A stretch of 64,000 nucleotides of DNA from Anaerolineaceae bacterium. GTDB lineage: Bacteria > Chloroflexota > Anaerolineae > Aggregatilineales > Phototrophicaceae. The translations under genes and the position numbers were made by a program. A model generated the notes under the pieces. The model searched no databases, was not told the origin of the DNA, and worked only from the letters and a program-made list of their open reading frames with translations. Shown piece by piece: positions 20,453-45,082 of the stretch. Position 1 is the first letter of the stretch. Each line of letters begins with the position of its first letter. The DNA is taken from the NCBI GenBank assembly GCA_002699585.1, contig PABP01000009.1:419750-483749 (forward strand), in the 5' to 3' direction.

Positions 20453-20695
20453 CCAGTCGGGAAACCGTTCAGCATAAAGTGCGGAAGTTCCAAAATTTCG
20501 GTGATTCGTAAAAAATCAGTTCGCTTTGTGGTATACGAACATTTGTGCTATATACTAGAGAGATAAAGCGTCAGAGAAGGGACGAAGTTATGCCGACAAT
20601 CACCATTGGTGCAAAAGTCGTCGGGCAGAAACGCCCGCTGTTTACAGACTACTGCTTTCCACTGTTACCCGATGTTATGGCATTACCCCGATAAG

Positions 20696-26699: not shown

Positions 26700-27931
26700 G
26701 TTGGGTTTCCAGTTTCATCTAACGTCATTTCAAAGAACGCTACCATCTGATTCAAGAAATCCTGCTGCATAGCGGGATCGTTAGCGATTTTTGTCAGATT
26801 ATGGACACTCGCCAACTTTCCCTGTTGTAACCAGAGTGCGGCTTCCTGTGCGACGCGATCTACGAGGATTGTTGCCATAAACGAAAGTTGCGGTATCGGA
26901 CGATGTGTCTTTTCAGCAGCATCGATCATGCGGTTGAACGCCTGCGTCGCTGTCTTCCAATGTTCATCTGAACCAGCCGGGTCTGCACCGCCTTTCAATT
27001 CAGCAGCCCAGGGAAAAGTATCAGACGGTATTTCGGTGATGAGATCGGGGCCAATTCGATAGCGTCGCTTCGTTTCCTCATTATGCCAGTACATCTGACG
27101 ATTGAGCAGCACACTGTTGCCGTTCGTCAGGTTGATCTGTCGATAGACAATCCGTTGGTCTTCGAGATCCGAGAGCAGGGTAGCCACTTCCTGTTCAGAG
27201 CGTCCTTGTAGTTCCACTTTCTGAATCTTCCCGTTATCGTTTTCATCCTCGTCTTCGAGAACGATGCGCCCCTTGACCTTGAAGATGATGCTTTTTAACT
27301 TTTGAAGGCGATGTAAATGGAGCACGATGGGCGAAATCACCGAAATATAGGCCAGTCGTCCAACCTCATTACGCCAACCACCGTCCAGACTCGCGCCAAT
27401 GTTGATGTACACCATTTCCAGATGACGCCGCTGCCCATATAGTCCAGTTTCCATAACCAGTGCGCTGGTAATCTTGTTGAGATGCTGAGCGATGGCCTGA
27501 GCCTTGTCTACACCGAGCGGCATACTGATCTCGTGTTGCGTCGTGTCTAATCCGATGTTGTTCATCACCTTGTTTGAGATCATTGCGACATTACGATAGT
27601 AGAGTACGAGGCGAGGCTCTCGCACGAGATCACCTGGTAAACAGAAATAGTAGGGATACGGAACAGGTGGATCATGGGCATCAAGCGTATCGATTGCAGT
27701 GGGGGAAATACCAGCAGCCTCGGCGCGTTCACGCCAGAGTTCCATATCATATTCTCTACCAAGTTGCTCAATGTCTTGGACAATGCCATCAACATCCAGC
27801 GCCGAGAGGTTCTTCAGGAAAAAGAGACCCCGGCGCACCGAGTTTTCACGAACTGCCTGAAGGATTTCCTCCTGTGTGCTTGCGTATTGGGTGTAGTCGT
27901 CTTGTTGCGATGCATTGGGTTGATCGGTCAT
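26696..27931 (-). CDS. putative restriction endonuclease partner of the methyltransferase (unassigned fold)
   Basis: ATGA start/stop overlap with the MTase gene suggests translational coupling. No recognisable family. Start taken at MTDQPNAS (the ORF extends to 27991). Confidence 0.35.
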   Translation of the reverse strand: MTDQPNASQQDDYTQYASTQEEILQAVRENSVRRGLFFLKNLSALDVDGIVQDIEQLGREYDMELWRERAEAAGISPTAIDTLDAHDPPVPYPYYFCLPGDLVREPRLVLYYRNVAMISNKVMNNIGLDTTQHEISMPLGVDKAQAIAQHLNKITSALVMETGLYGQRRHLEMVYINIGASLDGGWRNEVGRLAYISVISPIVLHLHRLQKLKSIIFKVKGRIVLEDEDENDNGKIQKVELQGRSEQEVATLLSDLEDQRIVYRQINLTNGNSVLLNRQMYWHNEETKRRYRIGPDLITEIPSDTFPWAAELKGGADPAGSDEHWKTATQAFNRMIDAAEKTHRPIPQLSFMATILVDRVAQEAALWLQQGKLASVHNLTKIANDPAMQQDFLNQMVAFFEMTLDETGNPT

Positions 27932-28025: not shown

Positions 28026-28260
28026 GTCACAACCGTCACAGGTCGAAATCAGCTACATGAAGATTGTTTTTTGTGCGGTATGTGATTTTTGCAAAATGTG
28101 TAGCAGTAACCGTCTCAGCTTGTGACGCTGTGACACCTGTGACGGATGCTGTTGGTCAATCGATTTTGTCGGGATTTTGCAGGTCAAAACACGGGGAATC
28201 GCATCATGTTTCGTAGCTACCATGCCCGGATTTTTGATTCGCCAACAACATCTGTGACGG
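28026..28260. repeat. GTCACA-rich repeat cluster A (GTCACAACCGTCACAGG forward; TGTGACGCTGTGACACCTGTGACGG and TGTGACGG reverse)
   Basis: The 17-mer GTCACAACCGTCACAGG recurs exactly at 39645-39661. The 16-mer CGTCACAGGTGTCACA recurs, inverted, at 39635-39650. Confidence 0.6.
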
Positions 28261-28359
28261 CGACCGGCTCGAAGCAAAAAAACAGCTGGTGAACGTGCCT
28301 GCTCAACACGCTTACCAGCCGGAGAAACAAAAACGGCTGCCCTTGTCGAGAGCAGCCGT

Positions 28360-29253
28360 CTAAGCGACACAACAGTATGCGATGGCGAGTTTCTTCTTGA
28401 TCTTCTTCCGGTAGTAGAAGATCATCTTGTGTTCTTTCTCGTCGCGGGCGAACTTCTTCACCTTTGCCTTGGTGGTCAGCGTGTAAATCGCAAACAGTGC
28501 CAGTGGACGATCCGAGTAGTGTTCGACCACCTGGAGATACGGTTCGATCTCGCCTGCATCGAGTCGTTCCTGCCAGGTGCGTGGCTGGATCATCGGCTCG
28601 TACTCCTTCAGGATGCGCTGAAGCCGGTGCTTGATCGCTGTCATACGCTCGTAGACCATCGAGTGCGCCAGATTATGCGCTTCCAGTGCCGCCTTCGAGT
28701 CAACACTGGTCGTCAGGATGTAGAGCGCGACCAGTTCCTTAATGTCGTCAGCGTATTCTTCGGCAATGGCGTGGATCGCGTCGGTAATGTCCAGCCGGAA
28801 GTCAATCTTCGTTGCCCACGGTGCCCAGCGTTCCGAGGACTTCTGCCAGGCGGTGGGGGATGAGTAGCCCGGAATGCCGTACTCGTCCACGTCCAGCGCC
28901 AGCTCACCTTCGATATCAGTGAAGGGGAGATACTTCTTGTTTTGCTTCTGAAGCGTGGTGGACTTGCTGATCGCCAACGCACGCCACATCGCCCCAAAGA
29001 TACCGACATCTGCCAGCAAGTTCGGGTCTTCGACCAGTCGCATCCACAGACGCATCAGCCCGGTCTGGATGCTGTCGGGGATATCCTGGCCATAGTTGCC
29101 AAAACGCTTCAGTTTGTTCGCCATCATCGGCGACAGGCACTCTGCGATCTCCTCGAAGGTGAGGTCGCCACCCCAGCCTGTCGGATAGCGCGGCGTGTGC
29201 GGAAATGGCTCGATGGACTCACGGATTTTGCTACGGGTTGTTGCTTCAGACAT
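28360..29253 (-). CDS. sigma-70/ECF-like protein, island 2 paralog
   Basis: Collinear with 16283-17179 (PTGWGG, GQDIPDSxQTGLMxLW, LVALYILTT...). Confidence 0.45.
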   Translation of the reverse strand: MSEATTRSKIRESIEPFPHTPRYPTGWGGDLTFEEIAECLSPMMANKLKRFGNYGQDIPDSIQTGLMRLWMRLVEDPNLLADVGIFGAMWRALAISKSTTLQKQNKKYLPFTDIEGELALDVDEYGIPGYSSPTAWQKSSERWAPWATKIDFRLDITDAIHAIAEEYADDIKELVALYILTTSVDSKAALEAHNLAHSMVYERMTAIKHRLQRILKEYEPMIQPRTWQERLDAGEIEPYLQVVEHYSDRPLALFAIYTLTTKAKVKKFARDEKEHKMIFYYRKKIKKKLAIAYCCVA

Positions 29254-29490
29254 GACGAAACCTCCTCGTCAAACCGGAAATCCGTCCGGCTGGCGGCTGA
29301 GCACAACGCTCAACCTGCCGGGGACGGCGCAGAGGAGGGGACCTGTCAAACAAAAAAGCCGACCAGATTGGTCAGCTTCTCATGATTTCAATTTGTGGTC
29401 GGCTTTTTAGGCGGATGGTTCGGTGGTCCCGTCCGCAGGATGGTACCAGCGTATCAGCCGCCGGTGTTTGATGGGGTGGATGCCCGCGCC
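29254..29490 (-). promoter_or_regulatory. conserved leader of sigma-like gene carrying an extra intrinsic-terminator hairpin (29353-29410)
   Basis: AAAAAAGCCGACCA...TGGTCGGCTTTTT, with a U-run on the gene (minus) strand. This hairpin is absent from the island-1 copy. Confidence 0.4.
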
Positions 29491-29608
29491 GTATGATCGC
29501 CGCGCGGCGGTGTGCGAACTTCAATTATTCTATGCAATAAACTTGTCTGAATTGACCTGGGGATGCTAATATTCATTAAAGGTAAAGTGAGCTAGAAGTA
29601 GGTTTTAG

Positions 29609-31156
29609 ATGGGCAATGGGACTATAGCCCTTGGAATTGATCTGGGCACAACAAATTCTGTTGTTGCTGTCGTAAATGAGCAGGGTGTGCCTGAGGTTAT
29701 ACCCAATAGTGAGGGTGAGCGATTGACTCCTTCATCTGTTCATTTTGATGGTGACAATATTGTAGTAGGACAATTTGCGAGAGATGCGCTGAGAGTTGAT
29801 CCAGACAATGTAGTTATGTTCGTCAAAAGACAGATCGGCAATCCGACTTGGCATGTGCAATATGATGGGAAGGAACATACTGCGATTGATGTTTCGGCTT
29901 TGATTCTTGAGAAACTCAGAAAGGATGCGGAACAGGCATTGAATATGTCCATCAATTATGCTGTCATCACTGTTCCAGCTGATTTTGATGATGCGCGACG
30001 ACGTGCAACAGAAACAGCAGCTACGATCGCGGGAATGAAAGTCCTGTGTTTAATCAATGAGCCTACGGCTGCTGCGATCGCGTTTGGCGCTAATCGTAAA
30101 GGTGATAAGAAAACTGTACTCGTTTACGACCTAGGTGGTGGTACCTTTGATGTTACTTTGATGATGATTGAAGGTGATAAGATTCGTGTTCTTGCTACAG
30201 AAGGCCAGCAACTTTTAGGTGGAAAAGATTTTGACGACCTGATTATCAAATATGCTGTCCAGGCATTCCAAGCTGAGCATGGCTTCGATCCAACAGCAGA
30301 AGAATATGTCGCAGCAGAATTGAGAGAACAAGCCGAAAAAGCCAAACGTGAGTTAAGTAAACGCAGCAGCACGATCCTTGTCATTGGGGCAAAGGGTAGG
30401 ACAACACGGACCTCGCTCACAAAAGAACAACTGGATGAGTTTATTTCATCAAAAGTAGATAATACTTTTATTCATATTCGAAATGTTCTAGAACATAGCA
30501 AACTTGCTCCAGAAGATGTTGATCAGGTTATACTTGTTGGCGGGTCAACACGTTTGCGGATTGTGCGCGAAAAATTAGCCGAGTTTTTTGGAAAAGACCC
30601 CGATGCTTCTATCAACCCAGATGAAGCTGTAGCACTTGGAGCAGCTATTGTCGCCGCTCGTGAATTAGCTGAAATAGAACCCGAGGCACTTTCAGAAACT
30701 GTACATGAGGTTGTTGGCGGATTACAGGTATCTGATGTGCTTTCTCATTCGTTGGGAATAGGCACCTTCGTACCCGGTACGAACCGTCCCTTCAATTCCA
30801 TTATGCTAGCTCGAAATACTCCCATCCCAAAAGAAGAATCCAGGATATTTCCAACTACCACGGCCAACCAAACGGCAATTAAGATAACTATATATCAGGG
30901 CGAATTTGATGATCCATCACTGTGTAATCCTGTGGGCGAATTTTTGCTTAAAGGCTTACCCCCAAACAGACCGGTAGGGAAAAAAGTTCGCATAACGATA
31001 TCTTGTAATACAAATGGGATGGTCGAGGTTCAAGCCACAGATATTGAGACCGGCTTGCAGGCCGAGACTGTAGTTAACTATAGTCAAGGATTGTCTCAGG
31101 ACGAAATCGCTGACAAGCAGAGCTGGCTGAAAAAGAAGACGAAGACCATCCTCTAG
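29609..31156 (+). CDS. Hsp70-family ATPase lacking the C-terminal helical lid (HscC-like)
   Basis: IDLGTTNSVVAV, DLGGGTFDVTLM, VILVGGSTRLRIVREKLAEFFGKDPDASINPDEAVALGAAIVAA. SBD-beta present, ends at 515 aa. Confidence 0.9.
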   Translation: MGNGTIALGIDLGTTNSVVAVVNEQGVPEVIPNSEGERLTPSSVHFDGDNIVVGQFARDALRVDPDNVVMFVKRQIGNPTWHVQYDGKEHTAIDVSALILEKLRKDAEQALNMSINYAVITVPADFDDARRRATETAATIAGMKVLCLINEPTAAAIAFGANRKGDKKTVLVYDLGGGTFDVTLMMIEGDKIRVLATEGQQLLGGKDFDDLIIKYAVQAFQAEHGFDPTAEEYVAAELREQAEKAKRELSKRSSTILVIGAKGRTTRTSLTKEQLDEFISSKVDNTFIHIRNVLEHSKLAPEDVDQVILVGGSTRLRIVREKLAEFFGKDPDASINPDEAVALGAAIVAARELAEIEPEALSETVHEVVGGLQVSDVLSHSLGIGTFVPGTNRPFNSIMLARNTPIPKEESRIFPTTTANQTAIKITIYQGEFDDPSLCNPVGEFLLKGLPPNRPVGKKVRITISCNTNGMVEVQATDIETGLQAETVVNYSQGLSQDEIADKQSWLKKKTKTIL

Positions 31157-31349
31157 GTGACAAATGTCATTGTTTATTAGGTTTCTGGCTGCATCCAATT
31201 CATGACAAAAAATCGTCCTAAAAACTTTGCTAGGATGCGATTCTCATATTATATTTATCTTGTGGGTTACTCTTGCGTGTGTACCGTAAGGCACATCAAG
31301 AATAGAAAGATGTGTTAACATGTAAAGAATTAGAATTAAGGCTACAAAG

Positions 31350-32651
31350 ATGCCCAACAATCGCCATCTAATCATTGACGAAGAACTGGTTCGTCCGCAA
31401 CAGCTTCTTGATAGAGGTTGGCCCATACCTGGTTTGGGGGGGAAACATCGGGTCGATCAAGGATGGTGCGCTGTCATCACGGTCGGTGGTGCTTATGAAG
31501 AGACTCTCGAACCCGGATTTTACGATATCAGCAAGTATCCTCGCCAGGATGTTCAGGCAATTCATGTCGATAAACGTCTCAAGCAGCTCACAGTAGCAAC
31601 TACACGCGAGTTCACGATCGCACGTCCCTTCCCCGTAGAAGTCGATCTTACACTGTCAGTAGAATATCGCGTCTCTGATCCCAGACGAGTAGCAGTCGAA
31701 ATTGAAAGCCCATTGACCAGCCTCTATGATCGTGTCCTTCAGGCGGTCAGAGGTGCAGTTGTGCATGTCGATTATGAGGAGTTTCGTACACAAGGGGAAC
31801 GGCTCGCACAGATCACGCTGGATCGGCTAAAAGCAATGCGCCTGCCAGATGTATTGGGGATCGACATCTTCAACGTTTTGGTTACGACCATCAAAGGAGC
31901 GGGTGAAGTCGCCAAGCGCATCCAGCATGAATGGGAGACTTTGCGCGATTGGCAGATGAACGCTCACATGGTGCAGAATTCGCAGATTACGCCACAATGG
32001 ATGGCAGTCAATGCGCCTGAACTCTACCAACAACTGATGGCAAATAATCATGAAGTGCGAATGGCTTTGATTGATATGGGACTTCTCGGACCTCAGGGCT
32101 TTCTCAATCAACCCGCTAATGCAAGCGGGACATTCGATGTCCAAAGTTTTATGAATACTTTGCCACCGGGCATGACATCTCCACAAGGACAAGTATTTTC
32201 CCCTTATGGACAGAACCAACCATCATTCCAACAGCAACCGCCACAGCTACAACAGCCAGCACAGACTCAGCATACACATGGCGTTGCACAACCGCAACAG
32301 AGTACTGATCCACTCGCACGTATTCGCGAAGAAGTAGAGTATCTTAAAAAACTCTCGAATGTCGTGGTGAAAGCTGAGGCATGTGAAGGTGAGGATGGCC
32401 TGCCTGACGGGACTTACATTCTTACTGTTCAGTTGAAAAGAACAGCAGATACCCCAGTTGTACTTGTGATTTATTGTCCAGAGGGGTTTCCCGATACAGC
32501 ACCTGAGGCAAGTGTGTTCTTCAGCGATGATGAAGCGGTGTTAAACGATCCTTCACAAGGGAAACCCTTCCAGTCGGGAGTCATGAGGAGATGGGCACCA
32601 TCCAACTATATTGTCGAAATTGCGCGTGAAGTGCGCGAGTTCTATGGATAG
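31350..32651 (+). CDS. SPFH/band-7 (flotillin/stomatin-like) domain protein with Q/P-rich linker and C-terminal possible E2/UEV-like domain
   Basis: GWCAVITVGGAYEETLEPGFYDI...VEYRVSDPRRVAVEIESPLTSLYDRVLQAVRGAV...LGIDIFNVLVTTIK follows the SPFH pattern. C-terminal VVLVIYCPEGFPDTAPEASVFF resembles the E2/UEV fold signature. Confidence 0.55.
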   Translation: MPNNRHLIIDEELVRPQQLLDRGWPIPGLGGKHRVDQGWCAVITVGGAYEETLEPGFYDISKYPRQDVQAIHVDKRLKQLTVATTREFTIARPFPVEVDLTLSVEYRVSDPRRVAVEIESPLTSLYDRVLQAVRGAVVHVDYEEFRTQGERLAQITLDRLKAMRLPDVLGIDIFNVLVTTIKGAGEVAKRIQHEWETLRDWQMNAHMVQNSQITPQWMAVNAPELYQQLMANNHEVRMALIDMGLLGPQGFLNQPANASGTFDVQSFMNTLPPGMTSPQGQVFSPYGQNQPSFQQQPPQLQQPAQTQHTHGVAQPQQSTDPLARIREEVEYLKKLSNVVVKAEACEGEDGLPDGTYILTVQLKRTADTPVVLVIYCPEGFPDTAPEASVFFSDDEAVLNDPSQGKPFQSGVMRRWAPSNYIVEIAREVREFYG

Positions 32652-32664
32652 GTGGTGATCGATC

Positions 32665-33426
32665 ATGAGTTTGGAACCCAATTACTATGATGTTCTGAAA
32701 ATACCACGCCATGCAACAGATCAGGAAGTAGAAGTCGCATTTCATGAACTATCAGATCAGTTAAAATCACTGGTGTCAACTGGGAGTGAGTTCGAAAGTG
32801 CTGAAGCAAGTCAACAACTTCAATTGGTTGATGATGCTTATCAGACGCTTCAAGGTGAAATACGGCGCAAGCAGTACGATTCTCAGCTTGATGGCTCGGA
32901 CCCTGACGTGCTGACGCCTGAATTAAGTATCGACAAAGCCCGAAAACAAACTGCAATCACAACTACGCCATCTCAAAATAGAACAGCCTACTGTGCAAGC
33001 TGTGGTGCTCATCTGCCTGAGAAAAGCATGGTCTGCATGAATTGTGGGGCAAGAGCACCTCAACTTGTTACATCCGAGATGCAGTGCCCATATTGCCGTA
33101 GTCAAGTCCCAGCAGGAAGCATGACATGCCTAACTTGCGGAGAGCAGGTTAGCCGTTTATGTCCTCAGTGTGGAGAGGCTATAGCATTAGGTGAAATAAT
33201 TTGTGGGCGATGTGGTACAAATATTCAGGACTATGACCGACGCCGATTTGGACAAGCAGAAATTATAAAACGTGAATTTGATAAGGAACGTGCAGAAGAT
33301 GCAGTTCGTGTGGAGAGTCAGCGGAGAATTCTCGCTTCACTTGATAAACAGGCAAGAGAATTCTGGTTTGTGGTAATTGGCTTAATAATTTTAACTATAA
33401 TTATCTTGTCGATGACCAATGGATAA
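32665..33426 (+). CDS. membrane-anchored multi-zinc-ribbon protein with degenerate J-domain-like N-terminus (no HPD)
   Basis: NYYDVLKIPRHATDQEVEVAFHEL... then five CxxC pairs and a C-terminal TM helix FWFVVIGLIILTIIILSM. Confidence 0.5.
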   Translation: MSLEPNYYDVLKIPRHATDQEVEVAFHELSDQLKSLVSTGSEFESAEASQQLQLVDDAYQTLQGEIRRKQYDSQLDGSDPDVLTPELSIDKARKQTAITTTPSQNRTAYCASCGAHLPEKSMVCMNCGARAPQLVTSEMQCPYCRSQVPAGSMTCLTCGEQVSRLCPQCGEAIALGEIICGRCGTNIQDYDRRRFGQAEIIKREFDKERAEDAVRVESQRRILASLDKQAREFWFVVIGLIILTIIILSMTNG

Positions 33427-34057
33427 AATTGATCACACCCATGCTGAAGCTCGCTGGCAATGCATTGACTGCGGATATGAGAATGTAACTGGTACAGATT
33501 CTTGCTCGGTTTGTGGCAGTCCAAAGCAGATTAACTGCTTGAATTGTAGATCACTCATTGATGCAGGGACAATCGTTTGTCCAACATGCGGCATAGACAT
33601 TACAAAGTATTCTTCTGCTTATGAACATTTGACAGCTAATTTCGTACTTGAAGTTGATGCTGATCGTGAAAAGTGGAAACAAAGTCAAGATGAACGAGTT
33701 GAACGTGAAATTGCATCTTCTTACGCGAACGCAAAACGTAGGACAGTACAAGCCCTTGTGCTATTTGGCGTCCTATTCGTAATTTTGATGACACTCTTCG
33801 TTGTTCGGCAAATAAGGGAACAAGAAAAGCAGGCAATGTTGTCGCGAGAATATGAAGCCGCTGCGAACTGTTTAGGAGAACACGACTACAACTGCGCTCG
33901 CGACCACTTACGTTATGTGCTGTCTGTTGAACCTGACTATCGCGATGCTTCAGAACTTCTAGAAGTCGTATACAACGATTGGATTGGTGAAGCGACTAGG
34001 CAGGGAGACATAGGGCTTGTCATCTCACTATTGGCTGAACGGACATTTTGGGATTAG
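33419..34057 (+). CDS. zinc-ribbon membrane protein with C-terminal TPR-like region
   Basis: WQCIDCGY...CSVCGS...CLNCRS...CPTCG. TM helix ALVLFGVLFVILMTLFVV. Confidence 0.5.
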   Translation: MDKIDHTHAEARWQCIDCGYENVTGTDSCSVCGSPKQINCLNCRSLIDAGTIVCPTCGIDITKYSSAYEHLTANFVLEVDADREKWKQSQDERVEREIASSYANAKRRTVQALVLFGVLFVILMTLFVVRQIREQEKQAMLSREYEAAANCLGEHDYNCARDHLRYVLSVEPDYRDASELLEVVYNDWIGEATRQGDIGLVISLLAERTFWD

Positions 34058-34089
34058 GAAAAGACTAAAGCAAGGGAAAGGAGATCCCC

Positions 34090-35079
34090 ATGCAGCAAAC
34101 ACAAAACTACTATGAAGTTCTACAGGTGGATCAAACCGCCGGAATGAATGAAATCGAGGAGGCATATCGTCGAGAATACAACAAGTGGTCTAAACTGATC
34201 AATCATCATGACCCTGATATGCAGGACAGCGCTCGAAAGAACCTGCGCCTTATCGAGGCTGCCAAAACAACATTGCTGGACGCATCTAAACGGTCTGAAC
34301 ATGACAGTGCGTTGGCATCAGGGCTTTATGATGAATCGGCGAAGCCAAATCTAACTGCTGTGGCGGGTATGCCCGTGATGACTCCACCGCCACCTCAGAA
34401 ATCATCCAAGAAGGAATCACCAACACTCAAGAATGCGTGGGAATGCACTGATTGTGATACCGTAAACTCTCCCGGTACGATGTATTGTATTTCCTGTGGT
34501 ACTCAACTAGGGAAGAACTGTCCAGAGTGTGGACACACACTTCCTGTCAGTGCCGAGTTCTGCACGAACTGTGGTGTCAATTTCCAGCAACGTGAGTGGG
34601 AGATTGAGCAAGATCAAATTGCAGCAGAGAAAGCAGCACGGCAACAGATGCAGAATTATTTCCAGTATGTACGCTCAATCCCGATGCATCGCCACAAAAA
34701 GGTCAGAGAAGAACTGGAAGCACATCCTGAGTACTCGCAGACAAGCGAAGCCATCAATTTGTATGAAGCGGCAAAACAAGAAGGGTCAAAGTGGACTTGG
34801 ACTCTTATTGGTATTTCAGCCGCTATTTCGGCATTTGCCGGGCTTGTTTTGGGCAGTACTGGACGTAATCCTGATGGGGGTTCAGGTTTGCTATTCGGTG
34901 CAGTGCTTGGAGCAATTGGTGGGGCGATATTTGGTCACTGGTGGGGTGGCAAGTGGGGAGGTGAGAGTGGACAGCCTCTAGATGCTATTCTCGCTGTCTT
35001 GACAGGGCCATTTCTGCTCGTCTTTGGTATTTTCATTCTTGTAATTGTTGGTTTTGTGATGTTTGCTGCTGGGGGATAA
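34090..35079 (+). CDS. J-domain-like / zinc-ribbon membrane protein with glycine-zipper C-terminal TM region
   Basis: NYYEVLQVDQTAGMNEIEEAYRREYNKWSKLINHHDPDMQ (HxDPD in place of HPD). CxxC pairs. GxxxG-rich TM helices. Confidence 0.5.
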   Translation: MQQTQNYYEVLQVDQTAGMNEIEEAYRREYNKWSKLINHHDPDMQDSARKNLRLIEAAKTTLLDASKRSEHDSALASGLYDESAKPNLTAVAGMPVMTPPPPQKSSKKESPTLKNAWECTDCDTVNSPGTMYCISCGTQLGKNCPECGHTLPVSAEFCTNCGVNFQQREWEIEQDQIAAEKAARQQMQNYFQYVRSIPMHRHKKVREELEAHPEYSQTSEAINLYEAAKQEGSKWTWTLIGISAAISAFAGLVLGSTGRNPDGGSGLLFGAVLGAIGGAIFGHWWGGKWGGESGQPLDAILAVLTGPFLLVFGIFILVIVGFVMFAAGG

Positions 35080-35085
35080 ATCTGT

Positions 35086-35640
35086 TTGGAGGTAGAACTC
35101 AAGATTAGTAGATCTACATTGAGCAGGTTGATCGTGCTTGGTTCCGTCTTACTGCTCAATATCGGAATTCTGACGTTGGGCAGCCGTCTAGAGGAAAACT
35201 CTGGTGCCAGCTATGGGGGGTTGTTTGTTCTGGCTTTCCTATTTAACTCAACTGTGTTGCTACCCTCCCCAATCCTTACCATAGTTGGCGCGATGAGTTT
35301 GTCTTTGCCTCCCTTGTGGGTTGGGTTAGTCGCTGGGGTTGGCTCTACACTGGGTGAGCTTGTAGGCTATACGGCTGGAGCAAGTGGAAGAGAGTTAGTT
35401 GATGGGCATGTAGGAGAGAGGCTGCGTAGTTTGATTGAACGTGGAGGAGGAGCAACCGTTTTTCTTGCAGCATTTACACCGGGGCCAGTATTCGACTTTG
35501 TTGGCATTGCAGCAGGGGCATTACGTTTTCCGCTAGGTCGATTTATCTTCTTCTGCGGGATGGGAAAGATACTAAAAATGATTTTATTTGCTTATTTAGG
35601 CGAAAGACTATTTTCAACTTTGTTGGAGTTTATCAAATAG
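35086..35640 (+). CDS. DedA/VTT (SNARE-associated, TVP38/TMEM64) family membrane protein
   Basis: Polytopic with GY...G motif region VGSTLGELVGYTAGASGRELV...FTPGPVFDFVGIAAGALRFPLGRF. Confidence 0.65.
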   Translation: MEVELKISRSTLSRLIVLGSVLLLNIGILTLGSRLEENSGASYGGLFVLAFLFNSTVLLPSPILTIVGAMSLSLPPLWVGLVAGVGSTLGELVGYTAGASGRELVDGHVGERLRSLIERGGGATVFLAAFTPGPVFDFVGIAAGALRFPLGRFIFFCGMGKILKMILFAYLGERLFSTLLEFIK

Positions 35641-35644
35641 AAAG

Positions 35645-35905
35645 GTGATCGACATGGCACGCTTTGAATACATGATGGTACAAGTACCTCCGACAATTCC
35701 GAAGTCGAAAGGAGCGAGCGGCAGCGAGGCTGCATCCTATTTGCAGTCGATAGTAAACGAACATGCTACAAAAGGCTGGGAGTTCTATCGAGTTGATTCA
35801 ATTGGAGTTGTTTCCGATCCAGGTTGTTTAGGAGCTTTGCTTGGGCAGAAACAAACCATTATCGAGTATTATGTAGTCACCTTCCGTAAACAACAAGGCG
35901 GATAG
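35645..35905 (+). CDS. DUF4177-like small protein
   Basis: FEYMMVQV...VNEHATKGWEFYRVDSIGV pattern. Confidence 0.4.
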   Translation: MIDMARFEYMMVQVPPTIPKSKGASGSEAASYLQSIVNEHATKGWEFYRVDSIGVVSDPGCLGALLGQKQTIIEYYVVTFRKQQGG

Positions 35906-35993
35906 CAACGAAGCTAACTTTGGCTTGCAGATGTTTGATGGGGGTTGGTACTTCACCAGCCCCAGTAGTTATTGATTAATAGTCGGGGGACCG

Positions 35994-38915
35994 ATGAAGA
36001 TTCCCTATATTTATATCTCAGACCGAGAATTGATTCGTGTCCCTGTTGAATATGATAATCAACAAGGTGTGCGATATGAAGACGTTGGCGGTGAACACGC
36101 AATTTGGATTGCTCGCGTTCCTTTTTTGCCAAGCTTTATGTCTGACGACTTCACACGGCTAGGCAAAGAACGAATAAGAATTATTGTACGGCGACAGTAT
36201 CGCTTTATTTATGATCTATCTCGATCCCGAGAAAATCAGGCAACATTCGAATTACGTTTTGTATCCACGCCAAACCCCATACCTGGGCAACCCAACGCCA
36301 TTGATATGGTGTTTTTAGGTAAAGTGTTCTCACGCCGCCATCGTGGTGGTTTTACCGAAGCCGTCGCACTATGGGATAAGTTTGCTGCAAATTTCCCACT
36401 TGAGGATCCCTTTAATTACCCTCTGGAACCTGTCTCTGAAGAACGATTTCAGCATTTTTATCAGCCTTTTGAGTTCAATACGCTCACTAAGGATAATATT
36501 CTCGAATTACGCAAGTATGAGGACATGCCCGTAACACCTGGAGGAGAGCTTGGACGCCAAGCCCGCAAGGGTGATTATATCGTTCATCCATTTGTACCCA
36601 GCACTGATTTCAACCCTATGGGACGATTCTTTGAGGCATTGGCTGTTCAGCAGCAGAAATGCTTTGCTTCGATTAGTTTGCGTCCGACCTCTCTGTTCCC
36701 ACAGGAGATACAGAATGTCAGTTTCCAGATAGGACAATTTCGCAAAGATGCGGCAGAGAATGATGAGGCGACAGAAGAATATATTCGGACTCGTTCGATC
36801 ATTGGATTGAAGGTCTATCAGCGATTAATGATGGAACGTGAGCACTTGCTTATGGTCCGCGTTCACGTCGTGGGTGAAAATCACGCACCTTATGCTGTGG
36901 CGGAAGCACTTGGCTCGGAGATGATGGATAATGGTCGTAACGAATATCCTACACAATGGAACAACGTTCAACCATCTACACCAAATGAACTTGAATCTGC
37001 TATACATAACTTGCGATGGCTAGAACACGATCTGTGGGGAGAGACTAAAGCTGTTCCACAGCTGGAACGTCTCAGGTATCTTGCTAGCGCATCTGAAGCG
37101 TCCGGAGCCTTCCGACTTCCTGTTCCTTCCGAAAGTGGATACATGCCAGGTGTACTTGTAAAGAGTGAGCCGTTTGTAGCACCGGCTGATTATCTCGAAA
37201 GTGACTCTGATGAAACAATTGATACAAGTGAAGCCAGATCAGAAGGGAATATTGATCTTGGCTATATATACCATCGCGGAAAATCGACCGCACAGAAATT
37301 CACAATTCCAGTAAGCGATTTTACTCGTCACACGTTGATTGCGGGATCGACAGGAGCGGGTAAGACGACCACCATAATGAGCATTCTAGCGCAAATGTGG
37401 AGTAAACATCGTATTCCATTTATGGTCCTGTATCCTATTGACAAAACTGATTATCGTGAACTGCGCCATTTCGGTGATTTGAAAGAAAATCTTTTAGTGT
37501 TTTCGTTGGGTGACGAAACAACTTCGCCTTTTCGGTTCAATCCATTCGAAGTACCAGAAGGAATGCTCCTCAAAACTCATCTGAGTCGCTTGATGAGGGT
37601 TTTTTCTGCTGCCTTTAGTCTGATGGATCCGCTACCCATGATCTATCGCGATGCCCTACGACGAGTGTATCGAAATCTTGGTTGGAACCCAGTCATTGAT
37701 CGCGGACAACCGGGCAGACAATATCCGGTCATGAGTGAGTTTCATTCCACAATCGATGAGATTACGAATGAGTTGAATTATGGTCGAGAAGTTCAGGATA
37801 ATGTACGACAGGCTTCTGTTATTCGCATCGGCGATCTCCTAGAAAATGCTGGTTATGTTGTCAATGTTCGTGAATCAATGCCCATATCGAGAATAATGCA
37901 ATATCCAACAGTGATGGAAATTGGTCGAGTTGGATCAATGGCTGATACAGCTCTTCTAATGGGCTTCCTTTTAATGCGTTTGGCAGGTGAGATTGAAAGA
38001 AATCCACGTCCCAGACATATGCCACATATCACAGTTGTCGAAGAAGCGCACAGATTGATGTCAGAAGTCTCGACAAATGGACAAGAAACAGGAGATCCGA
38101 GAAGTAGTGCTGGTGAGGATTTCAGTAATATACTTGCAGAGGTGCGCGGCTTTGGCGAAGGAATCATTATCGCCGAACAAATTCCGACTTTGCTGGTCAA
38201 AGGCGCGATTGGAAACACGTATATAAAGGTAATGCACTGGTTAGAAGATGTTCCCAGTTATGAGCTGTTTTCAAATGTTATGAATCTGAACGATCAGCAG
38301 CGTGAGTATGCTCGTACCTTGCAGGCAGGTCATGCCATTGTTCGTAGCCCTTTTGGACGCCCAGTTCACATCAAGATTCCAAGAATTACGGAACAACAAG
38401 CTGATAACTCTGACAAAGCTATTGCAGAACACATGGCCGAGCAACGTACTAAACTGGACATTAGAGCATCCAACATCATTGAATGGACTTCATCGATTTC
38501 AGCTAACACCGAAATCCGTAAGTTGCAGCTAGTTACGGTACAGAAGGCCGTTTCTGCTCGGATTTTGGATGCACCAATGCAGACTTGTGCTCACTGTATT
38601 CCATTGCTCAGCGAAGGAAAATGTCCTTATCGAAGTCAAGCCAAGCCGATGGTAGATTCCAAGGAATTCGCAAAGTGGGCTGAGTTGATTGATCTCACTA
38701 GTGAATTAGAAGATCCTCCAGCACGTTGGACAAACCTCTCTCAAATAGGGCGGAGGCTATTCGGAAAGGGAAATCCGGGGCAGTTTTACTGCTTACTGGC
38801 GCATCTAGCGGATCGTGCACAAAAGCTGGCGAGGGATGATGCTTCTAGTTTTGAAATGCGGTATCAACGTTATAGAAATATTTTAAACGATTTCCAGACT
38901 AACTATGAAAGGTAA
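35994..38915 (+). CDS. HerA/FtsK-superfamily (DUF87-like) ATPase, 973 aa, with large unique N-terminal region and C-terminal Cys cluster
   Basis: Walker A LIAGSTGAGKTTTIMSIL, Walker B-like ITVVEEAHRLM, FGEGIIIAEQIPT. CAHCIPLLSEGKCPY near the C-terminus. Confidence 0.8.
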   Translation: MKIPYIYISDRELIRVPVEYDNQQGVRYEDVGGEHAIWIARVPFLPSFMSDDFTRLGKERIRIIVRRQYRFIYDLSRSRENQATFELRFVSTPNPIPGQPNAIDMVFLGKVFSRRHRGGFTEAVALWDKFAANFPLEDPFNYPLEPVSEERFQHFYQPFEFNTLTKDNILELRKYEDMPVTPGGELGRQARKGDYIVHPFVPSTDFNPMGRFFEALAVQQQKCFASISLRPTSLFPQEIQNVSFQIGQFRKDAAENDEATEEYIRTRSIIGLKVYQRLMMEREHLLMVRVHVVGENHAPYAVAEALGSEMMDNGRNEYPTQWNNVQPSTPNELESAIHNLRWLEHDLWGETKAVPQLERLRYLASASEASGAFRLPVPSESGYMPGVLVKSEPFVAPADYLESDSDETIDTSEARSEGNIDLGYIYHRGKSTAQKFTIPVSDFTRHTLIAGSTGAGKTTTIMSILAQMWSKHRIPFMVLYPIDKTDYRELRHFGDLKENLLVFSLGDETTSPFRFNPFEVPEGMLLKTHLSRLMRVFSAAFSLMDPLPMIYRDALRRVYRNLGWNPVIDRGQPGRQYPVMSEFHSTIDEITNELNYGREVQDNVRQASVIRIGDLLENAGYVVNVRESMPISRIMQYPTVMEIGRVGSMADTALLMGFLLMRLAGEIERNPRPRHMPHITVVEEAHRLMSEVSTNGQETGDPRSSAGEDFSNILAEVRGFGEGIIIAEQIPTLLVKGAIGNTYIKVMHWLEDVPSYELFSNVMNLNDQQREYARTLQAGHAIVRSPFGRPVHIKIPRITEQQADNSDKAIAEHMAEQRTKLDIRASNIIEWTSSISANTEIRKLQLVTVQKAVSARILDAPMQTCAHCIPLLSEGKCPYRSQAKPMVDSKEFAKWAELIDLTSELEDPPARWTNLSQIGRRLFGKGNPGQFYCLLAHLADRAQKLARDDASSFEMRYQRYRNILNDFQTNYER

Positions 38916-38923
38916 ATGGGATC

Positions 38924-39235
38924 ATGTTCGAAAGGCCCAGATTTCGTCCAGAGCATGAACTGAGAAAAGAAGATAACGACAATCCCCAGCCATCTAGTTC
39001 TTCGGATGTAGACTTATCAGGGAATTTCGTGGAGCGTAAACGCGACCCAAGTGACGACGTGGGATCTGATACACCTGTTTCACAATATGACCAAACCGAT
39101 GAACATATAGAGAATCCTGATTTAACTTGGACGGACGAAGATGAGTCGTTATTTGATGAAGTTCAGAAGCTACGTTCCGAACAAGCGCAAGATATCAAAG
39201 AGGATGCGGATGCCCTTGATGATAAGTTCAAATAA
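38924..39235 (+). CDS. small acidic low-complexity protein with DLTWTDEDESLFDEV motif
   Basis: Starts 9 nt after the HerA-like stop. Paralog of the next gene. Confidence 0.45.
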   Translation: MFERPRFRPEHELRKEDNDNPQPSSSSDVDLSGNFVERKRDPSDDVGSDTPVSQYDQTDEHIENPDLTWTDEDESLFDEVQKLRSEQAQDIKEDADALDDKFK

Positions 39236-39272
39236 ATAAAAAGACATTTAGCCCGCAAGGTGAGAAATTGCT

Positions 39273-39605
39273 ATGAGCGATTGGCGTAAGGCAGCAAAAA
39301 TCGGGTTGACCGCTGCGGACATGTGGTGGCAAATCAATGGACATCCATTAGGAGAATTGCCTGATGCATATTCACATCTTGAAAGTCAGCAGCACGATCA
39401 AAATACAGCCCAAATGACCGAACTTAGAGATGCTATTCAGAGTGAAAGTGATCGTCCAGCCGAGTATCGAGATTATGAAGATGAATCGGGTGACCACATT
39501 GATACTGTAGATTTGAGCTTTACCGATGAGGATGAGGCTCTCTTTGCCGAAGTTGAAGCGGCTATTGAAGATCAAAGCTCTTTGTCTGAACAAAAAGATG
39601 AGTGA
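39273..39605 (+). CDS. small acidic protein paralog with DLSFTDEDEALFAEV motif
   Basis: Shares the TDEDExLFxEV C-terminal motif with the preceding gene. Confidence 0.45.
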   Translation: MSDWRKAAKIGLTAADMWWQINGHPLGELPDAYSHLESQQHDQNTAQMTELRDAIQSESDRPAEYRDYEDESGDHIDTVDLSFTDEDEALFAEVEAAIEDQSSLSEQKDE

Positions 39606-39634
39606 GCTTAGGGCGCAATAATGTAATGTTCGAA

Positions 39635-39733
39635 GCGTCACAGGTGTCACAACCGTCACAGGCACAAAGAGCGTGCCTGTGATTGCTTTTTGCGGTCTAT
39701 TTGGTCTGCGTCTCAGGTGTCACAGCCGTCACA
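39635..39733. repeat. GTCACA-rich repeat cluster B (CGTCACAGGTGTCACAACCGTCACAGG and GTCACAGCCGTCACAG)
   Basis: The first block is non-coding. The second overlaps the last codons of the Rep gene (encoding DCDGCDT). Confidence 0.6.
39656..39691 (+). terminator. rho-independent terminator of the Hsp70-HerA operon
   Basis: CACAGGCAC-AAAGAGC-GTGCCTGTG 9-bp stem followed by ATTGCTTTTTG. Confidence 0.65.
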
Positions 39734-42688
39734 GTCCAGAATCTCGGACTTGAGTTGCCATAATCGCACTCTACCGCCTCTAACCCTGCGCTGAACCGTC
39801 AGATTGAGGTTTCCAGGCAACAAGAAACCATCCTCCTTGAGCATCTTGCCGATGACATTGGCACCGAAGTTAAGCGGCTGGACGTGGTTCACAGCCTTGA
39901 GTGCGATCTCCGGCAGCAGGTAGACGAAGTTGTCGTCCTTATAGCCAACTACCGTTACACCGGGCGGGTACTCACGCGGATTGCGCATGTCATCGTCAAT
40001 GACCGCCTGCCCACCGGCGAGCAGCTGACCCAGGATGTCCAGAAAGACCTGACTGGCAAGCTCCTGGCGCAGATTTTGTACGGTCTCCACGATGCTGTCC
40101 TGCCACGTCGGGAGCAGATAGTCCTCCTCCATCTCCGCGACAAACTTCGAGAGCATCTGGAAAACCGTCACCAGCACTGCCCAGTTCTTCACGGCGCGGT
40201 CGTGTGCGTTCGATTTGCCGAGCTGCGCGGTTACTTTGGCGTTGTAACCGATCACGTTCTGACTGAAGCGGCTGGCAAGTTCAGCTTTGAAGTCACCATC
40301 ATCGAGCTGGCGTGCCACCCATGATGCAAAGTGGGCAGTGAAACCGGGCAGCTTATCGCGCAGCGCCTCAGCTTCGGCGAGTGCCTTACCCTGCGGATCA
40401 CGGTGCTTCCAGGGTGGGATTTCGAGTGCCATCATGCGCGAGGACACCGACATCTCGCCTTCCAGGCTGGTTTCACCAGTGGAGAGGATCAATCCCCGGC
40501 ACGGGCGAGACGTTTGCAGCTTGGCATCCCGTGTCAGCCGACCGCGACCGAGGTTACGCGAGTATCCCTGCAAGAAACGGGTGAACGTGCGGGTGTCGGC
40601 GTAGATGTCTTTGTAATCGTCCACCCAGTAAAGCGCGTCCGCCAACGGATAACCGAGCATCTCGACGGTGTTGATGGTGACGCCCCACTGCGCAGGCGGC
40701 GTATCACGGCTGAACTGTCCATAGAAGCTGCTCAACAGCGATGCGATTTCCGATTTGCCGCTACCCGATGTGCCGACCAGATGGATGGCTGGCCGCGTCG
40801 CCGACGGCGGGAAAAAGCGCTGGATCACCGGCAGTAGCGCGAAAGCAATCAGCGAGGGTGCCAGATTCGACGGCAGTACCTTTGCCACTGCATCAAATGC
40901 CCGCAGACTTTCGTCCCAACTGACCGCCTGCAAGCCGTAGTCGCGGAGGCGCTGGTCGAGTTCGACCGATGGTGGTTCCGCCAGCTTGCCCTTTGCGGTG
41001 ATGCAATCTTCAGGGGAGACATAGACCCATCTGCCGTCGATCTGCTTCCAGCCCATGAAGTTGTAGTGGCGATGGGTCGGAAACTCGCCCGACAGATGCA
41101 CGATGGCGGGAACCAGGTGCTTCGACATGCCTGCCCGAACGACGTACTGCGCTCCGGCGTTGGCTCCGATGAAGCGGCGCAGCGCGACATCATCGACGAA
41201 TACCTCACCGGGCACTTCCAGCTTTTTGGTCGATGATCCCCGCTGCAATTCGATGGTCGTGACGTGCGCTTCCTTGCCGTCATCATCAACCTGGCAGGTC
41301 TGATAAAGTGCGGTGGCTGCCCAATCGGTGACGGTACGCTCGGTCGTACCGCGATACGTCTCCTTGCGATAAACAATCTTGCCGTCCAGCAACAGATAGC
41401 TCTCGGTATCGACATATTCCTGCTGCCGCTGGCGCTCGATTGACTTCCGTTTCTCCCGGTACAGCTTGTCGATGTCACTGATTTTCAGTCCATCACCAGT
41501 GATTGCTTTGAACTTCTCGCGCTGTTCGGCCCATTCAACCGCATTGAGAGAGGCGCAAGCCTCCACCGCTTCGATGATCTCGGCGGTGGATGGTCTTTCA
41601 ACCGATTTCTGCCGCGTGTCGTAGCGATCCACCAGTTGGCTGACGTACGCCTCCGCGACTTGCCGTCGCGACTGAATCGCCTCGCGTGGCGGCTGGCTGA
41701 ACGCACTGGCGATAGTGGCGCGTGCCTCTTTCTCGCGTGCGGTGGCATTCTCACTACCATCTCCATCAGCCATGTAGCGACTGACCAGTTCTCGTTCTGC
41801 ATCGGACTGGCTGTAACCCGCATCACGTAACTGGCAGGCGGCGGCGAACAGTTCATGATTGCGGTTGCCATTGACTGCACCGGACGAAAGATAGCTCTCG
41901 GTACGCGGTGGTATTGGCGCGTTTCCATCGAGTGTCACGACATTGAGGTTGCCTATGCGTTCCACTTTCGGTCGCGGCTTGACTTCCAGCCAATCGAAGC
42001 ATTCCAACGGGTAGCGCCGATCCGGATGCCATTCCGTGATCTGAACCGCTGCGCCGTCGCGGTCAGGCTTGGTGTTGATGCTGCCCGGCAAGCGCATCAC
42101 GGATGCCACCGATTTCACATAGCCCTCGTCACCACCGAGTGCCGTGAATACGCCCTGCATCACGCGCCCGATTTTCTGCTTGTTTTCCTCGTCGAGTGAT
42201 AGCGGCTCATCGAGCAGCCAGTAGCCGTGCCAGCCGCCTCCGCTGGACACTACAATAGAAGGAGGCGTATCGAAGCCTTTTAGTCTTTCCAGATCGCGTT
42301 CCCTATTTTCCTCCGGGCCGTCGATGTCAATCCAGAGCGCGGGCAACAGTGCTGCCGATGCCGCGTTACCTTTCTTACCCGAACGGAGGCAGGGTGCGAA
42401 GTACACGCCATAGCCCTCGCCGTTGAGCGTATCTGCCTGCTTCAGCACGGCGTCGCGCTGTTTCTCGTTCCCGATTTGCGTCCAGAGGGCACGGACTTCG
42501 CCCGTTACCGGATGGATGCAGCGCAGTTCCAACCATAAATCAGCGGGGGCGTTTGGATATAGCGCAGAGAGAAAAGTGTCTCTGCCCGCGTTTTCGTCGT
42601 TGGTCGATTCGTGTTTCTGTGTCATACTATTTGTATTCCTTATGATGTACACAGGGGCTTGGGGTGAAACGTTTGGTCGCGATCTCAC
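39713..42688 (-). CDS. replication protein: archaeo-eukaryotic Prim-Pol domain fused to D5-like SF3 helicase/P-loop NTPase
   Basis: GVYFAPCL, ALWIDIDGP, SGGGWHGYWLL, RLPGSINTK (Prim-Pol). Walker A LVGTSGSGKSEI and YWVDDYKD. Confidence 0.85.
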   Translation of the reverse strand: MRSRPNVSPQAPVYIIRNTNSMTQKHESTNDENAGRDTFLSALYPNAPADLWLELRCIHPVTGEVRALWTQIGNEKQRDAVLKQADTLNGEGYGVYFAPCLRSGKKGNAASAALLPALWIDIDGPEENRERDLERLKGFDTPPSIVVSSGGGWHGYWLLDEPLSLDEENKQKIGRVMQGVFTALGGDEGYVKSVASVMRLPGSINTKPDRDGAAVQITEWHPDRRYPLECFDWLEVKPRPKVERIGNLNVVTLDGNAPIPPRTESYLSSGAVNGNRNHELFAAACQLRDAGYSQSDAERELVSRYMADGDGSENATAREKEARATIASAFSQPPREAIQSRRQVAEAYVSQLVDRYDTRQKSVERPSTAEIIEAVEACASLNAVEWAEQREKFKAITGDGLKISDIDKLYREKRKSIERQRQQEYVDTESYLLLDGKIVYRKETYRGTTERTVTDWAATALYQTCQVDDDGKEAHVTTIELQRGSSTKKLEVPGEVFVDDVALRRFIGANAGAQYVVRAGMSKHLVPAIVHLSGEFPTHRHYNFMGWKQIDGRWVYVSPEDCITAKGKLAEPPSVELDQRLRDYGLQAVSWDESLRAFDAVAKVLPSNLAPSLIAFALLPVIQRFFPPSATRPAIHLVGTSGSGKSEIASLLSSFYGQFSRDTPPAQWGVTINTVEMLGYPLADALYWVDDYKDIYADTRTFTRFLQGYSRNLGRGRLTRDAKLQTSRPCRGLILSTGETSLEGEMSVSSRMMALEIPPWKHRDPQGKALAEAEALRDKLPGFTAHFASWVARQLDDGDFKAELASRFSQNVIGYNAKVTAQLGKSNAHDRAVKNWAVLVTVFQMLSKFVAEMEEDYLLPTWQDSIVETVQNLRQELASQVFLDILGQLLAGGQAVIDDDMRNPREYPPGVTVVGYKDDNFVYLLPEIALKAVNHVQPLNFGANVIGKMLKEDGFLLPGNLNLTVQRRVRGGRVRLWQLKSEILDCDGCDT

Positions 42689-43624: not shown

Positions 43625-43627
43625 GTC

Positions 43628-45012: not shown

Positions 45013-45082
45013 AAGTCCTCCTTCTATAGGGGTTTTACGCGGTATACACTTCGGGCATACTCGGTAAAACCCCCGTTCAGAA

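Follow-up and report, generated by a model that had tools for sequence, protein, structure and literature searches.

Phased TGTGAC repeats beside rep in an Anaerolineae mobile element: a likely iteron origin split by an 11.5-kb cargo

The window analyzed here is a stretch of 64,000 nt from an Anaerolineaceae bacterium (GenBank assembly GCA_002699585.1, contig PABP01000009.1, positions 419,750 to 483,749 of the forward strand). It harbors rep, a gene for a primase-helicase, and two clusters of short GTCACA/TGTGAC repeats, of which cluster B (39637-39733) lies at the rep stop codon and cluster A (28026-28143) on the far side of a block of other genes. The clusters had been noticed in a first reading of the letters (the original prediction), which proposed cassette recombination sites, Rep-binding iterons or regulator operators. 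Here, it is argued that the repeats are likely to be iterons that bind Rep and, jointly, the origin from which an integrated, plasmid-like mobile element widespread in Anaerolineae replicates, and that this origin has been split by cargo. The genes of the window were called from Pfam, PHROGs and PADLOC scans and are listed with the other features in Table 1. As first described, the gene map places cluster A between the restriction-modification genes and the gene of a 297-residue sigma-like protein.

Table 1. Features of the window, with positions counted from its first letter; S1 to S4 are the four sets of repeat units.
Feature	Coordinates	Strand	Remarks
McrBC	12825-16180	+	
Sigma-like paralogue 1	16283-17179	-	298 residues
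Insertion sequence fragments	20000-22400		
Large serine recombinase	22509-24572	-	
Methyltransferase and BsoBI-like endonuclease	25191-27931	-	
Iteron set S4	28026-28040	-	2 direct units, TGTGAC ggt TGTGAC; distance to S3 about 100 bp, which is canonical
A/T-rich spacer	28041-28111		Conserved A-tract (rep strand TTTTGCAAAAATCACATACCGCACAAAAAAC); candidate DNA-unwinding region
Iteron set S3	28112-28143	+	3 units inverted relative to rep and 1 head-to-head unit, GTCTCA (28112-28117)
Inserted cargo	28144-39636		11.5 kb between S2 and S3; absent here in 47 of 56 relatives
Solitary TGTGAC unit	28253-28258	+	In the 130-bp stretch between sigma-like module and S3
Sigma-like module	28271-29519	-	Leader 29254-29519, gene 28360-29253, intrinsic terminators 28331-28361 and 28276-28322
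Sigma-like paralogue 2	28360-29253	-	297 residues
Cargo operon	29609-39605	+	Hsp70, SPFH, two DnaJ-zinc-ribbon, zinc-ribbon, VTT, DUF4177, 973-residue HerA/FtsK-like ATPase, two small open reading frames (Pfam)
Iteron set S2	39637-39660	-	3 perfect units, TGTGAC ggt TGTGAC acc TGTGAC
Hairpin with T-run	39655-39683	+	Terminator-like for the cargo operon; in the S1-S2 spacer; stem uses the innermost S2 unit
Iteron set S1	39710-39733	-	3 rep-strand units, TGTGAC ggc TGTGAC acc TGAGAC; overlaps last rep codons (CDGCDT) and stop
rep	39713-42688	-	Primase-helicase (PriCT_1, DUF927, primase PHROGs)
Rep residues 944-982	39743-39859	-	End of recognition helix and beta-hairpin wing (NLTVQRRVRGGRVRLWQLK); co-varies with iteron type
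Backbone genes	42713-46252	-	303-residue protein, HU-like protein, 100-residue open reading frame, 179-residue protein, ParM-like actin-family ATPase; conserved upstream of rep
Ordinary chromosomal genes	from about 47600		

Exact searches of the window located GTCACAACCGTCACAGG at 28026, as predicted, and its second copy at 39646, not 39645. Likewise, CGTCACAGGTGTCACA and its inverted copy were real, with starts at 39636 and, as the reverse complement, at 28129 instead of 39635 and 28128. The copy of TGTGACGCTGTGACACCTG at 28121 and the extra TGTGACGG at 28253 were found where they had been placed, and a further copy of the latter starts at 28138. The pattern GTCACA-N3-GTCACA (at most one mismatch) occurred six times as compared to 0.38 times expected, a number reached in none of 100 shuffles, and all six matches were confined to clusters A and B, i.e., to two 120-bp stretches. 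The bare hexamer was not enriched (31 versus 38.7 expected) and, thus, the signal consists of the 9/8-bp phased arrays; CGTCACAG was present eight times versus 2.3 times expected. The hexamer period of about 9 bp reported at first holds, with a single step of 8 bp in S3.

Altogether, 11 TGTGAC and two TGAGAC units were counted in the window (6-13 units in relatives), and the array starts inside the last 35 nt of rep. Cluster B comprises sets S1 and S2, with an S1-S2 offset of the canonical 73 bp, while cluster A comprises S3, the spacer and S4; all sets have the orientation that is canonical among relatives. The last codons of rep are the repeats themselves, and Rep ends in ...EILDCDGCDT, so that the original statement that cluster B encodes the terminal residues DCDGCDT is borne out. 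Within S3, the 23-mer GTCACAggtGTCACAgcGTCACA is identical in the related loci L050 and L052 (relatives are given L numbers throughout). Cluster B had been placed between the terminator of the cargo operon and rep; it does lie at the rep stop codon, but the terminator-like hairpin falls between its two halves. This hairpin also occurs in L084, the closest relative, and, hence, predates this particular cargo. As had been stated before, the repeats are not a CRISPR array, since their cores have 6 nt, their period is 9 bp and their sets number two to four units, as opposed to repeats of 25-40 nt with unique spacers of similar length. The solitary unit at 28253 may be a remnant of another S3 set.

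More than 300 Rep homologues were found, all in Anaerolineae, Aggregatilineales or Chloroflexota assemblies. For comparison, 80 genomic loci with flanks were used, often several per genome, of which 56 could be scored for the state of the array; many are from metagenome-assembled genomes and possibly chimeric. Because some loci sit in megabase contigs, the elements are taken to be integrated. Conserved across the 80 loci are the genes of the actin-like, 179-residue, HU-like and 303-residue proteins, rep and the repeat region. In 47 of the 56 scorable elements, all from Anaerolineae or Aggregatilineales, a stretch of about 270 bp at the 3' end of rep accommodates all four sets. Counted from the rep stop, the three direct units of canonical S1 stand at -35, -26 and -18, still within the coding sequence, and the three of S2, also direct, occupy about +38 to +55 and are mostly enclosed by the hairpin of the rep terminator. 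S3 follows with three inverted units at about +110 to +126 and one head-to-head unit; beyond a spacer of about 80 bp, direct units make up S4, two or three of them between about +213 and +230. The hexamer differs by Rep subfamily, and this layout is common to the types TGTGAC, TGAGAC, TGTGAA, GGTGAC, GTGGAG, TGGGGA/C and TGGCAC. An A5-7 tract occupies a fixed position in the S3-S4 spacer in every iteron type, and the spacer averages 55% A+T in relatives, compared to 45% for the loci.

Phased pairs were absent from the rest of the window and, in flanks of about 20 kb at 60 related loci, were almost entirely limited to the 3' end of rep, which refutes a generic scattered repeat, an outcome by which the original prediction could have failed. 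Known plasmids and phages gave only distant partial Rep matches (24-30% identity), and IMG/VR viral contigs a single weak partial one. No literature on the family was found, and no paper in the library searched connects DUF927 with Anaerolineae.

Some variants of the layout were also observed. In the TGGGGAC-type subfamily (L087, contig Ga0256668_1001977; L010; L033), rep is followed by three inverted units and, after an A-rich spacer, by two sets of three direct units that a second spacer separates, and the coding end of rep holds no set. Up to four or five elements of the family occur per assembly, e.g., in JACKCH01 (L004, L019, L067, L070), mostly with different iteron types. An unrelated AT-rich element on metagenome contigs (L090:1590-1920, L091, L092, L094) has TGTGAC/GTCACA triplets in the order inverted, direct, inverted, direct, located directly 3' of an open reading frame for a 425-residue DUF5906/VapE-like superfamily 3 (SF3) helicase; this is an independent case with the same hexamer and layout.

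The two clusters of the window are different halves of one such array and, therefore, 28144-39636 is an insert. Thus, the bracketing of about 11.6 kb of cargo described originally is confirmed insofar as this segment is absent at the same position in 47 of 56 relatives, but the clusters (S1+S2 versus S3+S4) are not equivalent cassette ends. In the remaining 9 of 56 loci, S3/S4 are displaced by 0.2-9.4 kb at the same junction. S1 and S2 are retained in L084 and L085, whose Reps are closest to that of the window (94% and 91% identity, respectively), and different genes come right after S2; in L084, homology to the window extends as far as 39634, 3 nt beyond S2. A metagenome scan for intact TGTGAC-type origins added two members (L089, L093), neither close enough to define the insert junction on the S3 side. 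As a separate observation, homology of L001 (Rep 92% identical) to the window ends just past S1 at 39706 and is followed by unrelated DNA; an insertion probably removed or displaced S2 there.

The insert is a mosaic of the sigma-like module, the Hsp70 operon and the 130-bp stretch. The Hsp70 operon is divergent from the sigma-like gene and low in GC (45-47% versus 55-59% on the rep side), and homologues of it were found at none of the 80+ related loci. Short-query BLAST with the 130-bp gap (28144-28273) gave no informative match. The S2-S3 spacer is a recurrent cargo slot in the family, occupied by other cargo in at least nine relatives. In L014, it holds a complete type III-A CRISPR-Cas operon (Cas10, Csm2-5, Cas6 and a Csx-type regulator), in L008 a predicted protein of 107 residues and three predicted proteins of 239-325 residues whose functions are guesses, in L002 and L062 single large open reading frames without Pfam match, and in L019 one of 202 residues. 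In L019 and L015, extra DNA lies between the T-run of the rep terminator and S3, and no target-site duplication was visible at the junctions of this DNA. Because the slot elsewhere holds CRISPR-Cas III-A, the operon of Hsp70, DnaJ, SPFH and HerA-like proteins is, by its position only, a candidate conflict system. PADLOC recognized no known defense system among ten cargo proteins, and only the ATPase matched, namely the generic HerA and mad8 models.

Conflict genes are abundant downstream of the origins of relatives as well (L082:13201-19881, L087:1628-7863, L019:13916-19120). They encode TIR-NB-ARC-TPR and TIR-STAND-WD40 proteins with EAD8 domains as well as large methyltransferase fusions of the MmeI-like and other type IIG-like kinds; in the window, the corresponding regions contain McrBC and a restriction-modification pair of the BsoBI-like type.

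The Rep protein was inspected for domains. Its true start is likely the conserved Met22 at 42625, which is invariant among the homologues and yields a protein of 970 residues. The helicase core matched Pfam DUF927 (E 4.2e-5; 23.8 bits versus a cut-off of 22.6) with an invariant Walker motif GTSGSGKSE. PriCT_1 scored 19.0 bits, below its cut-off of 21.1, PHROG primase families matched residues 76-295 (E 7.6e-12 to 3.7e-13), and RepB_primase matched weakly in a homologue. Toprim or DnaG did not match Rep, for which PriCT_1 and the primase PHROGs were the only primase signatures.

To find the protein segment that goes best with iteron type, pairwise identity was computed per segment, and its power to separate locus pairs of the same iteron type from those of different type was expressed as the area under the curve (AUC). 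Residues 944-982 of Rep reached an AUC of 0.96, compared to 0.58-0.77 for other Rep segments and 0.52-0.59 for the 303-residue, HU-like, 179-residue and actin-like proteins; as the sequences are related, these values are descriptive and not probabilities. The codons shared with S1 come only after those of residues 944-982 and, therefore, the co-variation is not a trivial effect of translated repeats. L002 (TGTGAC) and L003 (TGAGAC) are 94-97% identical over Rep residues 380-943 and 74% identical in 944-982. In two different backbones, NLTVQRR..RLW went with TGTGAC and NLSTQKR..RFW with TGAGAC. Similarly, the window Rep is about 94% identical to those of L036 and L075 and differs from them exactly in residues 944-982 and in iteron type.

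AlphaFold modeled the last 165 residues of Rep as helical, ending in helix-helix-beta-hairpin (predicted local distance difference test score, pLDDT, of 77.7); the co-varying segment forms this hairpin, and there is disorder in the six terminal residues. According to this model, the C-terminal domain is a winged helix with the co-varying segment as its wing. The top Foldseek match in the PDB was the initiator-helicase Rep of the Staphylococcus aureus pathogenicity island (SaPI) SaPIbov1 (8tch; E 1.7e-4, probability 1.0), and further matches were a DNA-bound oriT winged-helix protein and Cch of the staphylococcal cassette chromosome mec (SCCmec; 5dgk). The Rep tail, in which S1 is translated, differs between types: CDGCDT with TGTGAC, GCEGCETCE with TGTGAA, GDSGDSGD with GGTGAC and VETVEPPET with TGAGAC (window 39713-39745; L002-L079). 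Since S1 is translated, the tail is an acidic repeat dictated by the iteron, and it is predicted to be disordered.

Thus, of the explanations offered originally, that of Rep-binding iterons is favored by the position of the arrays at the rep 3' end throughout the family, the co-variation of the hexamer with the Rep wing and the SaPI-Rep-like fold. In such an origin, the C-terminal winged helix of Rep would bind the TGTGAC units. By analogy to SaPI origins, Rep hexamers might assemble on S3 and S4, which point in opposite directions, and melt the A/T-rich DNA of the intervening spacer. At the gene end, S1 and S2 could form an auxiliary site for Rep loading or copy control. Cluster A would then be the core origin, and the cargo would sit in a tolerated gap between clusters A and B. 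Rep may also autoregulate or terminate transcription via S1/S2, which is compatible with an iteron origin.

Several points weigh against the proposed origin. Rep binding, spacer melting and activity of the split origin are inferred for this family. The spacer is modestly enriched in A/T; in the window, it has 60% A+T (28041-28120, head-to-head unit included) versus 48.5% for the whole window. DnaA boxes were absent from the window origin and occurred in only four closely related loci, in the S3-S4 spacer; neither these boxes nor other host-factor sites are general across the family. A sequence profile of Rep found no solved relative in the PDB, and the likeness to SaPI Rep exists only at the level of the modeled fold. 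The AUC values derive from related sequences, as stated above. Co-resident elements of the same iteron type made up 9 of 48 pairs versus 13.2 ± 2.8 expected (P = 0.08), a weak trend only; it hints at incompatibility-driven diversification of co-resident iteron types but is not significant. The 297-residue gene inside the slot is atypical compared to relatives. Finally, an origin cut by 11.5 kb might be inactive, and the element might be a decaying, non-replicating copy.

Among the other explanations, the clusters could be site-specific recombination sites (cassette or attachment sites) for insertion and excision of the 11.5-kb block, which we regard as improbable. They flank a compositionally distinct block, the cargo here differs even between Reps of 91-94% identity with a breakpoint within 3 nt of the last S2 unit, and a large serine recombinase gene is found 3.5 kb beyond cluster A. 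However, an empty site should show a single recombined site, and the 47 cargo-free loci keep all four sets contiguous and complete; this finding speaks against the cassette option of the original prediction. Moreover, the flanks are not equivalent, S2 having three direct units and S3 three inverted ones plus one, the insert is without a recombinase, and homologues of the serine recombinase lie near rep in only 3 of 80 loci, on the other side. The missing target-site duplication at the L019 junctions also speaks against such sites, as does the fact that repeat type tracks the Rep winged helix and not any recombinase, and homologous recombination between the conserved flanks explains the exchange of cargo equally well. 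A 31-nt similarity between 22529 and 46292 was considered as a pair of attachment sites and rejected, since it has 74% identity with an 11-nt core, which is the chance level.

It is quite improbable that the repeats are operators of a regulator (the 297-residue sigma-like, the HU-like or the 303-residue protein) acting on transcription at the rep end and on the restriction-modification genes. In favor of this, repressors of the ribbon-helix-helix or winged-helix kind typically have short phased sites in both orientations, S2 overlaps terminator hairpins, and the distance from cluster A to the restriction endonuclease gene downstream of it is 35-95 bp, which varies with the start codon used. 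Binding by the sigma-like protein, as suggested at first, is argued against because a 97% identical copy occurs in L087, the repeats of which are of the unrelated TGGGGAC type. The 303-residue and HU-like proteins do not track repeat type, nor do the 179-residue and actin-like ones (AUC values above). In addition, the genes downstream of S4 vary by locus, while the array stays fixed to rep.

Similarly doubtful is a parC-like centromere of a ParM-like actin partition system with, e.g., the 179-residue product as adaptor. The backbone does encode an actin-like partition ATPase (ALP_N, E 7e-20; PHROG partition protein, E 2e-47), and type II centromeres are arrays of short phased repeats. A centromere-like array was looked for upstream of the actin-like gene, and no other repeat array was found next to this gene, which is a point in favor. 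Yet a centromere is expected upstream of the partition operon, the clusters lie 5.4 kb from the actin-like gene, at the rep stop, and neither the actin-like protein (AUC 0.59) nor the 179-residue protein (0.57) co-varies with repeat type; the latter is 93% identical to its counterpart in L003, which has TGAGAC repeats. Chance or a generic genome-wide repeat has next to no probability, for although shuffles gave about 0.25 direct and about one inverted 16-mer pair, such that a lone 16/17-mer match in 64 kb is not extremely rare, the six phased pairs stand in two 120-bp stretches and the same arrays recur at the same rep-adjacent position in dozens of genomes.

The iteron origin and the cargo slot may be combined in one speculative reading, to which we assign a low probability. 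In this case, a dedicated cargo slot of the origin would gain and swap defense or conflict modules, such as type III-A in L014 and the Hsp70 operon here. Rep bound to S1/S2 and S3/S4 would bridge the halves by looping at least 11.5 kb of DNA, and the origin would still fire. The cargo would reside at the site of highest copy number in a Rep-held loop, replication would be coupled to cargo dosage or expression, and the Hsp70-HerA operon would be an undescribed conflict system recognized from its position.

Further observations concern the sigma-like module. Its DNA (28271-29353/29515) shares 85-92% identity with L087 and L088, and this identity ends at 28271-28274. Sigma70_r2 matched 9 of 28 members of the sigma-like family, and the top fold matches of the protein were extracytoplasmic function sigma factors, all of them weak. 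Since the sigma-like gene of relatives always follows S4, the copy inside the slot is unusual, and it is paralogue 1, further downstream, that has the canonical position. A terminator of a long hairpin and T7 lies 3' of both paralogues (28276-28322 and 16221-16265, minus strand), and the two copies agree in 97% of a 36-nt core, as opposed to only 51% identity between the proteins. The terminator at 28276-28322 also ends the module that the window shares with L087 and L088.

Immediately 5' of the sigma-like genes is a conserved non-coding element of about 110-265 nt (29254-29519 and 17180-17404 in the window, minus strand), which was also present in L002, L004, L006, L012, L070, L081, L088 and about 20 more loci. 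Its DNA identity is 70-89% in at least 29 loci, as compared to proteins that are only about 35% identical. A hairpin in 22 aligned copies showed compensatory changes (CG/UA 12:10, AU/GC 13:9, UA/CG 13:9), with 36 double-change cells versus 13.8 ± 3.5 in shuffled and 0-3 in slid controls. The element is a candidate structured leader RNA. Rfam gave no family match to the element or anywhere in the window, and none in 29200-29650 at E values up to 1. A supposed gene of 85 residues at 17195-17452 beside the sigma-like gene was dismissed as probably being this conserved non-coding leader. With regard to the backbone proteins, PHROGs matched only partition, HU-like and primase families, and chromosomal genes adjoin the actin-like gene in L082.

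These results provide a likely replication module for a family of mobile elements often found in Anaerolineae and Aggregatilineales, where a genome may have several of them. They also describe a natural specificity experiment, in which the one-base change from TGTGAC to TGAGAC is accompanied by a change from TVQRR..L to STQKR..F in the wing. The cargo slot of the origin points to places where new defense-type systems may be sought, including the operon of Hsp70, DnaJ, SPFH and HerA-like proteins. For annotation, the repeats are best treated as ordinary iterons, with caution against reading them as cassette ends.

Comparison with known replicons places this origin among several partial likenesses. 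In iteron plasmids such as RK2, R6K, pPS10 and P1, Rep-binding repeats stand beside an A/T-rich unwinding region, and extra clusters serve copy control or act at a distance. The window resembles them in having repeat arrays next to an A/T-rich region, but their iterons have 17-22 bp, as compared to 6-bp cores at 9-bp phase here, and their Reps are small winged-helix initiators that recruit the host helicase. Cch of SCCmec has in common with Rep the DUF927 helicase core and the C-terminal fold match (5dgk). Cch is encoded apart from its primase partner, and no iteron array is known to have been described for it; this element, in contrast, has an evident iteron array and, probably, a primase fused to the helicase.

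Satellite P4 is reported, in work ascribed to Flensburg and Calendar (1987) and Ziegelin et al. (1993), to have two clusters of the same iterons, in both orientations and kilobases apart (ori and crr), which are both said to be bound by its alpha protein. The clusters are 11.5 kb apart in the window and 0.2-9.4 kb apart in nine relatives; separation is normal in P4, whereas here the contiguous form of 47 loci is the norm and separation comes from cargo. In the alpha protein, a primase, an SF3 helicase and a C-terminal winged helix are fused (PMC2777425). Its primase is of the DnaG/Toprim type, in contrast to the PriCT_1 and weak RepB_primase signatures of this Rep. The Sulfolobus plasmid pRN1 likewise has a Rep with primase, SF3 helicase and winged helix and an origin directly 3' of its own gene. 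This origin, 3' of the gene for the primase-helicase ORF904 and next to the rep terminator, is relocatable (PMC4234260), but it is a 100-nt stem-loop without iterons.

The closest parallel is found in SaPIs. Their origins have 6-12 penta- or hexanucleotide iterons immediately 3' of rep, which are read by the C-terminal winged helix of Rep, and an AT-rich centre with at least two iterons on each side in opposite directions (PMC9371898). S3, spacer and S4 of the window fit this arrangement of oppositely oriented iterons around an AT-rich centre. Further likenesses are the self-loading initiator-helicase, which is primase-fused in SaPI5 (PriRep5), and the variation of Rep/iteron specificities between islands (PMC9371898). 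On the other hand, there is no detectable sequence similarity, and, therefore, the comparison supports that this Rep works like SaPI Rep and not that both belong to the same protein family. The host phylum here is Chloroflexota, there are four sets and not two, one of them inside the rep coding sequence, and the direct-repeat pair S1/S2 is separable from the S3/S4 core, with cargo inside the origin. Moreover, a ParM-like partition gene is present, and phage-satellite features are absent from the regions seen. Thus, an iteron origin beside a winged-helix primase-helicase gene is already known, and this variant is marked by the four-set layout, the set inside the rep frame, the swapping of wing and iterons as a module and the recurrent cargo slot in the origin.

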